38,208 nt of DNA from Enterobacteria phage T3, in sequence record NC_003298.1; one strand, written 5' to 3'. The notes under the pieces were generated by a model that worked only from the letters and a program-made list of their open reading frames with translations, made no database searches and was not told the origin of the DNA. The position numbers and the translations under genes were made by a program. Below, one piece after another: positions 5,990-25,495 of the stretch (the first letter of the stretch is position 1; the number at the start of each line of letters is the position of its first letter).

Positions 5990-6006
5990 CCCTCACTAAC
6001 GGGAGA
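5984..6006 (+). promoter_or_regulatory. T3-type promoter, class II (phi1.1)
   Basis: AGTTAACCCTCACTAACGGGAGA. Confidence 0.85.
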
Positions 6007-6008
6007 GT

Positions 6009-6048
6009 TAAACTTAAGGTCATCACCAACGGTGGCCTTTGTGATTAA
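6009..6048 (+). promoter_or_regulatory. RNase III-type processing hairpin (R1.1-like)
   Basis: AAACTTAAGGTC ... GTGGCCTTTGTGATTAAC. Confidence 0.7.
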
Positions 6049-6081
6049 CTTTCAATACACATCAACATGAGGTAAGATACT

Positions 6082-6500: not shown

Positions 6501-6521
6501 TAACCCTCACTAACAGGAGAA
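6499..6521 (+). promoter_or_regulatory. T3-type promoter, class II (phi1.3)
   Basis: AATAACCCTCACTAACAGGAGAA. Confidence 0.8.
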
Positions 6522-6522
6522 T

Positions 6523-6558
6523 CCTTAAGGTCACTTTAACGAGTGGCCTTCGTGATTC
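6523..6558 (+). promoter_or_regulatory. RNase III-type processing hairpin (R1.3-like)
   Basis: CCTTAAGGTC ... GTGGCCTTCGTGATT. Confidence 0.65.
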
Positions 6559-10604: not shown

Positions 10605-10625
10605 TTAACACTCACTAAAGGGAGA
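10603..10625 (+). promoter_or_regulatory. T3-type promoter variant with A at -10 (phi4)
   Basis: AATTAACACTCACTAAAGGGAGA; differs from the consensus only by C to A at -10. Confidence 0.75.
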
Positions 10626-10630
10626 CTTAA

Positions 10631-12370
<1,740 letters not shown>

Positions 12371-12690: not shown

Positions 12691-12975
12691 ATGAGTAAAT
12701 CAATCAAGCACGCAAACACCATCCGTCTGCCGGACACTGCTGACCAGTTCGCTCGTCGGGTACACATTAATGTGCGTGGCGAGAAGGTCACAATGGTCTA
12801 CCGCTGGAAAGACCACAAGTCTCCGAAGGCACACACTCAGCGTATGACCTTGGACGACAAGCAGGTAGGCCGCCTGATGGGTGCCCTGACTATGGCTGCT
12901 GACAATGTGGTTGGGGATAACCGCGAGCGTCTGGTAGAGTTCGGCGCTGGTATGCAAGAGATTATCGAGAAGTGA
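12691..12975 (+). CDS. 4.5: gp4.5, function unknown
   Basis: 94-aa ORF with SD. Confidence 0.7.
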   Translation: MSKSIKHANTIRLPDTADQFARRVHINVRGEKVTMVYRWKDHKSPKAHTQRMTLDDKQVGRLMGALTMAADNVVGDNRERLVEFGAGMQEIIEK

Positions 12976-13012
12976 TAAACTCAAGGTCGCCCAAGGGTGG
13001 CCTTTATGATTA
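12976..13012 (+). promoter_or_regulatory. RNase III-type processing hairpin (R4.7-like)
   Basis: AAACTCAAGGTC ... GTGGCCTTTATGATTA. Confidence 0.7.
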
Positions 13013-13042: not shown

Positions 13043-15157
13043 ATGCTCGTAAGTGACATTGAGGCCAACAACCTCTTAGAGAAAGTCACCAAGTTTCACT
13101 GTGGCGTCATCTATGACTACCGTGATGGTGAGTATCATAGTTATCGTCCGGGCGACTTCGGGGCGTATCTGGATGCGCTGGAAGCCGAGGTGAAGCGAGG
13201 TGGGCTTATTGTTTTCCATAACGGTCACAAGTATGACGTTCCTGCATTGACCAAACTGGCAAAGCTGCAATTGAACCGAGAGTTCCACCTTCCTCGTGAG
13301 AACTGTATCGACACCCTTGTGCTGTCACGCTTGATTCACTCTAACCTAAAGGACACCGATATGGGTCTTCTGCGTTCCGGTAAACTTCCGGGGAAACGCT
13401 TTGGGTCTCACGCTCTGGAGGCGTGGGGTTATCGCTTAGGCGAGATGAAGGGTGAATACAAGGATGACTTTAAGCGTATGCTTGAAGAGCAAGGCGAAGA
13501 ATACGTTGACGGAATGGAGTGGTGGAACTTCAATGAAGAGATGATGGACTATAACGTTCAGGACGTTGTGGTCACTAAGGCTCTCCTTGAGAAGCTACTC
13601 TCTGACAAACATTACTTCCCTCCTGAGATTGACTTTACGGACGTAGGTTACACTACGTTCTGGTCAGAATCCCTTGAGGCCGTTGATGTTGAACATCGCG
13701 CTGCATGGCTACTCGCTAAGCAAGAGCGCAATGGATTCCCGTTTGACACGAAAGCAATCGAAGAGTTGTACGTAGAGTTAGCTGCTAGACGCTCTGAGTT
13801 GCTACGTAACTTGACCGAAACGTTTGGCTCGTGGTATCAACCTAAAGGTGGAACAGAAATGTTCTGCCATCCACGAACAGGTAAGCCACTACCTAAATAC
13901 CCTCGCATTAAGATACCTAAAGTTGGTGGTATCTTTAAGAAGCCTAAGAACAAGGCACAGCGAGAAGGCCGTGAGCCTTGCGAACTGGATACCCGCGAGT
14001 ACGTTGCTGGCGCTCCTTATACTCCAGTGGAGCACGTAGTGTTTAACCCTTCGTCTCGTGACCACATCCAGAAGAAACTCCAAGAGGCTGGGTGGGTCCC
14101 AACTAAGTTCACCGATAAGGGTGCTCCTGTGGTGGACGATGAGGTACTCGAAGGAGTACGCGTAGATGACCCTGAGAAGCAAGCGGCTATCGACCTCATT
14201 AAAGAGTACTTGATGATTCAGAAGCGAATCGGACAGTCTGCTGAGGGAGACAAGGCATGGCTTCGTTACGTTGCTGAGGACGGTAAGATTCATGGTTCTG
14301 TTAACCCTAATGGAGCAGTTACGGGTCGTGCGACCCATGCGTTCCCCAACCTTGCGCAAATTCCGGGTGTACGTTCTCCTTATGGAGAGCAGTGTCGCGC
14401 TGCTTTTGGCGCTGAGCACCATTTGGATGGGATAACTGGTAAGCCTTGGGTTCAGGCAGGTATCGACGCATCCGGCCTTGAGTTGCGCTGCTTGGCCCAC
14501 TTCATGGCTCGCTTTGATAACGGTGAGTATGCTCACGAGATTCTTAATGGTGACATCCACACTAAGAACCAGATGGCTGCTGAATTACCTACCCGTGATA
14601 ACGCTAAGACGTTCATCTATGGGTTCCTCTATGGTGCTGGTGATGAGAAGATTGGGCAGATTGTTGGTGCTGGTAAAGAGCGCGGTAAGGAACTCAAGAA
14701 GAAATTCCTTGAGAACACACCTGCGATTGCAGCACTACGTGAGTCTATACAACAGACGCTTGTCGAATCCTCTCAGTGGGTAGCTGGTGAGCAGCAAGTC
14801 AAGTGGAAACGCCGCTGGATTAAAGGTCTGGATGGTCGTAAGGTACACGTTCGTAGTCCTCACGCTGCCCTGAATACCCTACTGCAATCCGCTGGTGCTC
14901 TCATCTGCAAACTGTGGATTATCAAGACCGAAGAGATGCTCGTAGAGAAAGGCTTGAAGCACGGCTGGGATGGGGACTTTGCGTACATGGCATGGATACA
15001 CGACGAAATTCAGGTAGCTTGTCGTACCGAAGAAATCGCTAAGACTGTCATAGAGGTCGCACAAGAAGCGATGCGTTGGGTTGGAGAGCATTGGAACTTC
15101 CGTTGCTTACTCGACACCGAGGGTAAGATGGGAGCCAACTGGAAAGAATGTCACTAA
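13043..15157 (+). CDS. 5: DNA polymerase (family A)
   Basis: 704 aa, same length as T7 gp5; AAAGGAGG SD. Confidence 0.97.
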
Positions 15158-16150: not shown

Positions 16151-17045
16151 CCTTAAACAATTCTACGAGTTACGTGAAGGCTGTGACGACAAAGGTATCC
16201 TTGTGATGGATGGAGACTGGCTGGTCTTCCAAGCGATGAGTGCTGCTGAGTTTGATGCCTCATGGGAGGAAGAGATTTGGCACCGCTGCTGCGACCACGC
16301 TAAGGCCCGTCAGATTCTTGAGGATTCCATTAAGTCCTACGAGACCCGCAAGAAGGCTTGGGTAGGTGCTCCGATTGTCCTTGCGTTCACCGATAGTGTT
16401 AACTGGCGTAAAGAACTGGTTGACCCGAACTACAAGGCTAACCGCAAGGCAACCAAGAAACCTGTAGGTTACTTTGAGTTCCTTGAGGCTCTCTTTGAGC
16501 GTGAAGAGTTCTATTGCATCCGTGAGCCTATGCTTGAAGGTGATGACGTTATGGGAGTTATCGCTTCCAACCCGTCTGCATTCGGTGCTCGTAAGGCTGT
16601 AATCATCTCGTGCGATAAGGACTTTAAGACCATCCCTAACTGTGACTTCCTGTGGTGTACCACTGGTAACATCCTGACTCAGACCAAAGAGACCGCTGAT
16701 TGGTGGCATCTCTTCCAGACCATCAAGGGTGATATGACCGATGGCTACTCCGGGATTCCCGGCTGGGGCGATACGGCAGAAGGTTTCCTGAATGACCCGT
16801 TCATTGTGGAGCCTGTAGAGTCCGTGTTGAAGTCTGGTAAGAACAAGGGGCAGACAGTAACCAAGTGGGTGAAGCGTGCTCCTGATGCGACTGAGACTCT
16901 GTGGGACTGCATTAAATCCATTGGTGCAAAGGCTGGGATGACCGAGCAGGAAATCATCAAGCAAGGCCAGATGGCTCGCATTCTTCGCTTCGAGGAATAC
17001 AATTACATTGACAAGGAGATCTACTTATGGACGCCGCGAAGCTGA
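16137..17045 (+). CDS. 6: 5'-3' exonuclease
   Basis: 302-aa ORF at the gene 6 position and size. Confidence 0.92.
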
Positions 17046-17140
17046 TTACCGTCGCTGTGCTGGTAGGTATGCTGGCGCGTGGTCTCTGGATGTTCGCTCT
17101 CATAGTCCGAGACGTGAAGCGAGACTCAGAGATTAAGTGA
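17027..17140 (+). CDS. 6.3: gp6.3 small protein
   Basis: 37-aa [40 protein letters not shown]; overlaps the end of gene 6. Confidence 0.6.
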
Positions 17141-17141
17141 T

Positions 17142-17199
17142 AAACTCAAGGCTCTCTACAATTAACCCTCACTAAAGGGAAGAGGGAGCCTTTATGATT
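17142..17199 (+). promoter_or_regulatory. RNase III-type hairpin (R6.5-like) with the phi6.5 promoter in its loop
   Basis: AAACTCAAGGCTCTC ... GAGGGAGCCTTTATGATTA encloses AATTAACCCTCACTAAAGGGAAG (17160-17182). Confidence 0.75.
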
Positions 17200-17233
17200 A
17201 TTACTTTAAGACTTAACCCTAAGAGGTGAAATT

Positions 17234-17479
17234 ATGTTACAACCAATTAATCATGTTTTAACTCATCCCGATGATATTCCTAGTATGCCTCGTGCAGCTA
17301 AAGAGTATCTACAGGTGCGCTTCAATCAGGCTTATGTGATGGAGTCCGGGGAGTACCGTGCGCTCCGCGCTGCTGGATACTCTGAGTCTTTCATTGCGGG
17401 TGTGATGCATGGTCTGTACCTTGCCTCTCGTACACTTGATGAGATTGAGGTGCGTAAAGAGCAACTGAGACAGGAGTAA
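17234..17479 (+). CDS. 6.5: gp6.5
   Basis: 81-aa ORF with SD. Confidence 0.7.
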   Translation: MLQPINHVLTHPDDIPSMPRAAKEYLQVRFNQAYVMESGEYRALRAAGYSESFIAGVMHGLYLASRTLDEIEVRKEQLRQE

Positions 17480-18092: not shown

Positions 18093-19700
18093 ATGGCTGA
18101 TTCAAAACGTACAGGATTGGGCGAAGACGGTGCTAAAGCTACCTATGACCGCCTAACAAACGACCGTAGAGCCTATGAGACTCGTGCGGAGAACTGTGCG
18201 CAATACACCATTCCGTCCTTGTTCCCGAAGGAGTCCGATAACGAATCTACCGACTACACGACTCCGTGGCAGGCTGTAGGTGCGCGGGGTCTCAACAATC
18301 TAGCCTCTAAGTTAATGCTTGCGTTATTCCCGATGCAGTCGTGGATGAAGCTGACCATTAGCGAATATGAGGCGAAGCAGCTTGTTGGAGACCCTGATGG
18401 ACTCGCTAAGGTGGACGAAGGTCTGTCAATGGTTGAGCGCATAATCATGAACTATATCGAATCCAACAGTTACCGCGTAACACTCTTTGAGTGCCTCAAG
18501 CAGTTGATCGTGGCTGGTAACGCCCTGCTTTACTTACCGGAACCAGAAGGTAGCTACAATCCGATGAAGCTGTACCGATTGTCTTCTTATGTTGTCCAAA
18601 GAGACGCATACGGCAATGTGTTACAGATTGTCACTCGTGACCAGATAGCCTTTGGTGCTCTCCCGGAAGACGTTAGGTCTGCGGTAGAGAAATCTGGTGG
18701 TGAGAAGAAGATGGACGAAATGGTCGATGTGTACACCCATGTGTATCTCGATGAAGAGTCCGGCGATTACCTCAAGTACGAGGAAGTAGAGGACGTTGAG
18801 ATTGATGGTTCCGATGCCACCTATCCGACTGACGCGATGCCCTACATTCCGGTTCGCATGGTTCGCATTGATGGCGAGTCTTACGGTCGCTCCTACTGTG
18901 AAGAATACTTAGGTGACTTAAGGTCGCTTGAGAATCTCCAAGAGGCTATCGTTAAGATGAGTATGATTAGCGCGAAGGTCATTGGTCTGGTGAACCCGGC
19001 TGGCATTACGCAGCCCCGTAGATTAACCAAAGCTCAGACTGGTGACTTCGTTCCAGGCCGTCGAGAAGATATTGACTTCCTGCAACTGGAGAAGCAAGCT
19101 GACTTTACCGTAGCGAAAGCTGTGAGTGACCAGATAGAAGCACGCTTATCGTATGCCTTTATGTTGAACTCTGCGGTACAGCGCACAGGCGAACGTGTGA
19201 CCGCCGAAGAGATTCGATACGTTGCGTCAGAACTGGAAGATACGCTTGGTGGCGTCTACTCGATTCTGTCTCAAGAATTGCAATTGCCTCTGGTACGTGT
19301 GCTCTTGAAGCAACTCCAAGCAACCTCGCAGATTCCTGAGCTACCGAAAGAAGCCGTTGAGCCTACTATCAGTACAGGTCTGGAAGCAATTGGTCGTGGT
19401 CAAGACCTCGATAAGCTGGAGCGTTGCATCTCAGCGTGGGCGGCTCTTGCCCCTATGCAGGGAGACCCGGACATTAATCTTGCTGTCATTAAGCTACGCA
19501 TTGCTAACGCTATAGGTATTGATACTTCTGGTATCCTACTGACGGATGAACAGAAGCAAGCCCTTATGATGCAGGATGCGGCACAAACAGGCGTCGAGAA
19601 TGCTGCGGCTGCTGGTGGTGCTGGTGTTGGTGCTTTGGCTACCTCAAGTCCAGAAGCCATGCAAGGTGCTGCTGCCAAGGCTGGCCTCAACGCCACCTAA
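18093..19700 (+). CDS. 8: Portal (head-tail connector) protein
   Basis: 535 aa, GAGGAGG SD. Confidence 0.95.
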   Translation: MADSKRTGLGEDGAKATYDRLTNDRRAYETRAENCAQYTIPSLFPKESDNESTDYTTPWQAVGARGLNNLASKLMLALFPMQSWMKLTISEYEAKQLVGDPDGLAKVDEGLSMVERIIMNYIESNSYRVTLFECLKQLIVAGNALLYLPEPEGSYNPMKLYRLSSYVVQRDAYGNVLQIVTRDQIAFGALPEDVRSAVEKSGGEKKMDEMVDVYTHVYLDEESGDYLKYEEVEDVEIDGSDATYPTDAMPYIPVRMVRIDGESYGRSYCEEYLGDLRSLENLQEAIVKMSMISAKVIGLVNPAGITQPRRLTKAQTGDFVPGRREDIDFLQLEKQADFTVAKAVSDQIEARLSYAFMLNSAVQRTGERVTAEEIRYVASELEDTLGGVYSILSQELQLPLVRVLLKQLQATSQIPELPKEAVEPTISTGLEAIGRGQDLDKLERCISAWAALAPMQGDPDINLAVIKLRIANAIGIDTSGILLTDEQKQALMMQDAAQTGVENAAAAGGAGVGALATSSPEAMQGAAAKAGLNAT

Positions 19701-25436: not shown

Positions 25437-25456
25437 CTCAAAGTCTCCCTGCGGTG

Positions 25457-25479
25457 AATTAACCCTCACTAAAGGGAGA
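25457..25479 (+). promoter_or_regulatory. T3-type promoter, class III (phi13), exact consensus
   Basis: AATTAACCCTCACTAAAGGGAGA 23/23. Confidence 0.95.
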
Positions 25480-25495
25480 CACTAATAGATACGAA

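Follow-up and report, generated by a model that had tools for sequence, protein, structure and literature searches.

How can one segment of DNA serve as a promoter and also, once it has been copied into RNA, as part of a processing site? The region between genes 6.3 and 6.5 of Enterobacteria phage T3 raises this question. An earlier note, made from the sequence alone, had described positions 17142-17199 as the phage promoter phi6.5 nested inside an RNase III-type hairpin. The window analysed here is the whole 38,208-nucleotide stretch of sequence record NC_003298.1, given as one strand 5' to 3', and positions are those of the window unless another record is named. The local gene order runs from exonuclease gene 6 through gene 6.3, the intergenic region, gene 6.5, gene 6.7 and gene 7.3 to portal gene 8. 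The features that frame the intergenic region are:

17027..17140, + strand: gene 6.3, the last gene upstream of the R6.5 hairpin
17222-17230, + strand: Shine-Dalgarno sequence of gene 6.5, AAGAGGUGA
17234..17479, + strand: gene 6.5, the first gene 3' of both predicted alternative 5' ends

Existing records go a long way towards identifying this locus. The 601 bases around R6.5/phi6.5 are 100% identical to T3 records X17255, KC960671 and NC_047864 and to the T7M record, and they are 97-98% identical to many T3-like phages. In X17255, a T3 record from 1989, a stem_loop called 'structure R6.5' (14300-14371) encloses a promoter (14325-14347). These correspond to positions 17135-17206 and 17160-17182 of the window. 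The T7M record has an 'RNase III recognition site R6.5' that encloses 'promoter phi6.5', and a matching nested annotation is found in the records of phiYeO3-12, phiSG-JL2 and Yersinia phage Y. The T7 records that we examined annotate the promoter and have no R6.5 feature. A literature search on R6.5/phi6.5 matched only Jack et al. 2017 and 2019. Since the sequence is identical to T3 records that carry this annotation, we are confident in reading the interval between genes 6.3 and 6.5 as a T3 intergenic control element, the RNase III signal R6.5 with its apical loop occupied by phi6.5. The nesting of a promoter in a hairpin is already known. It has been annotated for T3 since 1989, it is common to T7, and in that sense it is ordinary. 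The interpretation in the earlier note is thus supported, and it is correct but no discovery.

The promoter itself is easily recognized.

17160..17182, + strand: T3 RNA polymerase promoter phi6.5, -17 to +6, with +1 at G17177 (21/23 consensus match; annotated in X17255 and T7M)

This 23-mer, AATTAACCCTCACTAAAGGGAAG, departs from the T3 consensus at +5 and +6 only, which bears out the claim that the loop holds a near-consensus T3 promoter. The start site had been put near 17177, and counting from -17 does give G17177. Initiation at this base is predicted from the consensus. The promoter has the same orientation as the genes. When the T3 consensus is searched for with up to 3 mismatches there are 10 matches on the + strand of the window, including phi6.5, and none in 100 shuffles. 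At +5 and +6 (17181-17182) the promoter has AG instead of GA, adjoining the first pair of the upper stem. The resulting GGGAAG at this site is common to phiYeO3-12, phiSG-JL2 and the K11-type phages.

The hairpin around this promoter is longer than had been described. Its minimum free energy fold has these parts:

17135..17206, + strand: complete R6.5 hairpin, 72 nt (MFE fold; equal to the X17255 stem_loop and the T7M R6.5)
17135..17143, + strand: lower stem, 5' strand, AAGUGAUAA (fold; pairs almost invariant in 13 phages)
17144..17147, + strand: internal loop, 5' side, ACUC (fold; same asymmetric loop in R0.5, R4.7 and R18.5)
17148..17157, + strand: upper stem, 5' strand, AAGGCUCUCU (fold; covariation in relatives)
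17158..17182, + strand: apical loop, 25 nt (fold; 3-6 nt at paralogous sites)
17183..17192, + strand: upper stem, 3' strand, AGGGAGCCUU (fold and covariation; begins at promoter position +7)
17193..17197, + strand: internal loop, 3' side, UAUGA (fold)
17198..17206, + strand: lower stem, 3' strand, UUAUUACUU (fold and covariation)

The lower stem has 9 bp and the upper stem 10 bp, with an asymmetric 4/5-nt internal loop between them, and of the 25 nucleotides in the apical loop the promoter fills 23. The 5' arm singled out in the earlier note, AAACTCAAGGCTCTC, is located at 17142-17156 and flanks the loop as claimed. The 3' arm, GAGGGAGCCTTTATGATTA, is present too, although it lies at 17182-17200 and so runs one base beyond the end given for it. 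The nested hairpin is there, but 17142-17199 is too short to hold it, and the full structure is 17135-17206. Folding of 17130-17210 had been proposed as a check. The hairpin forms in that RNA at -24.5 kcal/mol (z = -4.29), and none of 200 shuffles reached a fold as stable. It persists when folded in a 191-nt read-through RNA. The minus strand has a weaker fold (-20.7 kcal/mol, z = -2.4). The more stable fold of the plus strand and an invariant G.U pair together indicate a sense-strand RNA structure rather than a DNA palindrome.

The structure has the features of a T7-group RNase III signal. It lies in an intergenic region, is formed by the transcribed strand, and consists of two coaxial helices, each about 9-10 bp long, with an asymmetric internal loop between them. 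The distal box requires a helix reaching about 11 bp from the cut, and the 10-bp upper stem together with the loop-closing position provides it. An Rfam scan of the whole window gave no family at or above the gathering threshold and no family matching T7-group RNase III sites. The stop codon of gene 6.3, TGA (17138-17140), is inside the 5' strand of the lower stem. The sequence of that strand, AAGUGAUAA, is also the lower stem 5' strand of another annotated hairpin, R4.7 (12970-12978, as against 17135-17143 in R6.5). At both sites it holds the upstream gene's TGA stop and then an in-frame TAA, which means translation of genes 6.3 and 4.5 ends within a processing hairpin.

It is worth comparing R6.5 with the other processing sites of the same genome. 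Ten hairpins are annotated as RNase III recognition sites in the near-identical T7M record, and we located them in the window. Four of them have the arms of R6.5 closed by a short loop:

822-875: R0.3, arms as R6.5, 3-6 nt loop
1359-1408: R0.5, arms as R6.5, 3-6 nt loop
12970-13018: R4.7, arms as R6.5, 3-6 nt loop
35038-35088: R18.5, arms as R6.5, 3-6 nt loop

These four share with R6.5 the nearly identical arms GUGAUAAACUCAAGG ... CCUUUAUGAUUA and the asymmetric internal loop. Like R6.5 they are intergenic, with the stop codon of the upstream gene in the lower stem. They differ in having a 9-bp upper stem and a loop of 3-6 nt without a promoter, whereas R6.5 has a 25-nt promoter loop. The arm motif CCTTTATGATT has 6 matches in the window with at most 1 mismatch, against 0.34 expected, and TAAACTCAAGG has 4 against 0.63 expected. 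Exact matches to the arms AAACUCAAGG / CCUUUAUGAUU recur at R0.5 and R4.7, and near matches are found at R0.3, R1.1 and R18.5. Since R0.3, R0.5, R4.7 and R18.5 have the same arms and close with 3-6 nt, R6.5 is a canonical site in which the short loop is replaced by a 23-nt promoter.

The interval has detectable homologues in 452 phage records. We aligned 13 distinct versions, which come from T3, phiYeO3-12, phiSG-JL2, T7, N30, Yersinia phage Y, ESh2, Ebrios, TVB03, Kp175002, K11, Kund-ULIP54 and vB_Yep_15. Pairs were counted against the T3 structure, and the controls were alignments with the 3' partners slid and 500 shuffles. Standard pairs make up 99.1% of the cells in the 13 phages and no more than 63% in the slid controls. 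The lower stem is nearly invariant and includes the invariant G.U pair. In the upper stem 6 of the 10 pairs have changed on both sides, and the covariation score was reached by 0 of the 500 shuffles. The extent of this turnover can be seen from the two strands of the upper stem in T3 (GGCUCUCU/AGAGGGAGCC), T7 (GGUCCCUA/UAGGGGCC) and K11 (AUGGGCAC/GUGCCCAU). In every long-loop phage the loop carries a promoter of the phage's own specificity, be it T3-, T7-, K11- or TVB03-type, and several of these are annotated as phi6.5. The CR8-type promoter is likewise at the same position. The RNase III-type identity claimed for the hairpin therefore holds up on the annotation of the identical sequence in X17255 and T7M, on the covariation, and on the arms shared with the paralogous sites.

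IMG/VR was scanned for the two arms at a distance of 25-55 nt. There were 21 matches. In 20 of them the loop contains a promoter of T7 or T3 type, and this search for arms with a long loop found no diversity beyond the T3/T7 types. The match L037 was rejected as a chance match. More distant phages were reached through the gene 6.5 protein, and the intergenic regions upstream of it were folded. The same geometry is found in K1F (Kayfunavirus), CR8 (Caroctavirus), Yep-phi and PP74 (Berlinvirus) and MP2 (Minipunavirus), and also in Erwinia phage pEp_SNUABM_10 and Klebsiella phage 140f (Kp140f). In each, an asymmetric internal loop separates the lower stem from an upper stem that is 10 bp or longer, and the apical part contains a promoter-like 23-mer. 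In CR8 an annotated promoter is located inside the hairpin. The z scores against shuffles are -3.2 to -5.4 for the five that were folded this way (K1F, CR8, Yep-phi, MP2 and pEp_SNUABM_10). The genera with nesting are Teetrevirus, Teseptimavirus, Przondovirus, Berlinvirus, Kayfunavirus, Caroctavirus and Minipunavirus, to which the Erwinia phage must be added, and all belong to the enterobacterial Studiervirinae. In the Pseudomonas phages FRS (Ghunavirus; L040 285-350) and Stalingrad (Troedvirus; L041 181-350) a promoter-like sequence precedes a stable hairpin and is not nested in it. This means the layout is not universal in the subfamily, and it seems to be confined to enterobacterial genera.

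It must be noted that three T7-like genomes have an identical 30-bp deletion (CTAAATTAATACGACTCACTATAGGGAGAT). They are Yersinia phage vB_Yep_15 (L015:181-222), vB_Yep_9 (L050) and AH67C600_Q5 (L049), and the deletion corresponds to 17153-17183 of the window. The deposited records are PV596791, PV596790 and MZ833439. It takes out phi6.5 and the top of the upper stem, and the arms are then closed by a 6-bp stem and a tetraloop. This shortened stem is below the roughly 11 bp that RNase III needs. The deletion could represent genuine natural variation that does away with the promoter, or an error of assembly at the hairpin.

How would the nested element work? On DNA the 23-bp promoter would direct T3 RNA polymerase to initiate at G17177. 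On RNA made from upstream promoters the arms would pair, giving two coaxial helices of 9 and 10 bp with the asymmetric internal loop between them. This fold would present host RNase III with a standard T7-group substrate. The enzyme would most likely cut once, at about U17195^G17196 in the 3' strand of the internal loop. We placed the predicted cut by alignment to T7 CCUUUAC^GAUU and by the T7 R6.5 coordinate 18563, which we take to be the one given by Dunn & Studier 1983. After cleavage the upstream gene 6/6.3 message would end in a protective 3' hairpin, and the downstream message would have a 5' monophosphate at its start, 38 nt ahead of the AUG of gene 6.5. RNA initiated at phi6.5 would start within the loop and retain a 5' triphosphate end 19 nt further upstream. 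That RNA should be unable to form the substrate, since it is without the whole 5' arm (17135-17157). It had been claimed that such RNA carries only the 3' arm, and with a start at 17177 the geometry agrees. The two predicted 5' ends are thus pppG17177 and pG17196. A distance of 19 nt separates them, and the gene 6.5 RBS at 17222-17230 is downstream of both. We infer RNase III cleavage in T3 by homology only, and with it the exact cut position and the stabilising role of the 3' hairpin.

Several published observations on T7 and on RNase III bear on this scheme. Internal loops restrict RNase III to one-strand cuts, and the resulting 3' hairpins stabilise the upstream RNA (PMC3867540). The same source places the distal box about 11 bp away from the site of cleavage (PMC3867540). 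The loop could hold a promoter if recognition by the enzyme extends no more than about 11 bp into the helix on each side of the cut and is indifferent to anything further away. Since the distal box is at that distance, a 10-bp upper stem should suffice and the content of the loop would be free to be a promoter. RNA-seq work on T7 puts the phi6.5 start just before the R6.5 cut and shows a steep increase in read coverage at this point (Jack et al. 2019, PMC6938266). The same study describes the promoter/RNase-site arrangement as common in T7. T7 can do without the processing, since hosts deficient in RNase III still support its growth (PMC6938266). The predicted unpaired probability of the gene 6.5 RBS is 0.24-0.38 across the three RNA species, which is little difference. 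With accessibility this similar we make no claim of differential gene 6.5 translation between them.

There are other ways to explain conserved arms around a promoter. One can imagine that the hairpin is an RNA element that RNase III does not cut in T3, such as a pause site, a terminator or an exonuclease barrier, and that its likeness to T7 is only ancestral. The records of T3 and its relatives do label R6.5 'structure' or 'putative', and an apical loop of 25 nt is out of the ordinary for a T3 site. However, other T3/T7 sites have exactly the same arms, internal loop and CCUUUAUGAUU motif. Although its sequence has turned over completely, the upper stem still measures about 10 bp, and that fits the length requirement of RNase III (PMC3867540). 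A terminator is also hard to maintain when 16900-17400 has no terminator-like site (a G+C-rich stem, a short loop and a U run) on the + strand. We consider an uncut element improbable. The intrinsic terminator and sigma-70 promoter readings were rejected because nothing was found for them on the + strand. A structure that acts in DNA is harder still to accept. It would be a cruciform, or a protein-binding palindrome that modulates phi6.5, and the arms are indeed symmetric around the promoter in DNA. Watson-Crick covariation alone would be compatible with DNA pairing, but on the opposite strand the invariant G.U and several U.G pairs would turn into C.A mismatches. The fold of the minus strand is the weaker of the two, and the same arms are found at R4.7, R0.5 and R18.5 where there is no promoter to modulate. 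We rejected a DNA cruciform on the G.U pairs and the weaker minus-strand fold, and see very little chance that the inverted repeat acts in DNA rather than in RNA.

The remaining alternative is that the 3' arm is conserved for a leader mini-ORF, through which translation would be coupled to gene 6.5 on promoter-initiated RNA alone. Such an ORF exists. It is MIITLRLNPKR*, 11 codons long, with GGAG at 17185-17188, 5 nt of spacing, AUG at 17194 and a stop at 17227-17229 within the Shine-Dalgarno sequence of gene 6.5. Since RNase III is predicted to cut inside the AUG, the start codon would be intact only on phi6.5-initiated RNA. The ORF is not a conserved one. T7 has ACG in place of the AUG, and in K11, Ebrios and TVB03 the frame stops after 4 codons. 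The same AUGAUU is found in RNase III sites located elsewhere, and the accessibility of the Shine-Dalgarno sequence differs little between RNA species (the 0.24-0.38 given above). Since it is not kept in T7 or the K11-type phages, we rejected the mini-ORF as the reason for the conservation, and the coupling scenario is hardly credible. The processing signal R6.5, with phi6.5 in its loop, is the reading we retain.

It could be argued that the nesting itself is under selection and is not mere genome compaction. Across these enterobacterial Studiervirinae the promoter stays exactly in the loop of the hairpin before gene 6.5, despite complete turnover of both promoter specificity and stem sequence. 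The layout could insulate the class II/class III boundary. We put this forward tentatively and consider it rather unlikely. If it were true, the insulator would cut off read-through RNA and exempt promoter-initiated late RNA from processing. The two RNAs would differ in 5' chemistry and stability. The three genomes with the identical 30-bp promoter deletion would then be natural tests of function. Even as a plain arrangement the locus shows compactly how a single stretch of DNA can be used at two levels, with the DNA read as a promoter and its RNA copy forming the loop of a processing hairpin. The locus would provide two defined 5' ends 19 nt apart before the late genes. It has little weight as a discovery, since the T3 annotation dates from 1989 and the same arrangement is in the standard T7 map. 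The added value is modest. It consists of the quantitative covariation and of the nesting across at least seven genera (plus the unclassified Erwinia phage) with differing promoter specificities.

Among the closest known systems is phi6.5/R6.5 of T7, where +1 is at 18545. It is like T3 in lying between genes 6.3 and 6.5, in having the same lower stem and internal loop, in its 10-bp upper stem with a 23-bp promoter filling the apical loop, and in marking the boundary before the late structural genes. It is unlike T3 in having a T7-type rather than a T3-type promoter. The upper-stem sequence is entirely different but compensated, and at the predicted cut the AUG of T3 corresponds to ACG in T7. 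Within T3 itself, 5 of the 10 annotated RNase III hairpins touch a phage promoter, and the geometries differ. Beside R6.5 they are:

6003-6053: R1.1/phi1.1, promoter abuts the hairpin, just upstream
6519-6558: R1.3/phi1.3, promoter abuts the hairpin, just upstream
10616-10642: R3.8/phi3.8, promoter -4 to +7 equals the 5' arm
25443-25480: R13/phi13, promoter spans the loop and 3' arm, and the 3' arm equals promoter +1 to +7

In phi13/R13, phi3.8/R3.8, phi1.1/R1.1 and phi1.3/R1.3, as in R6.5, a promoter and a processing hairpin share DNA. R3.8 and R13 are without the canonical two-helix arms. Among the T3 overlaps it is R6.5 alone that combines the canonical two helices with a promoter confined to the loop.
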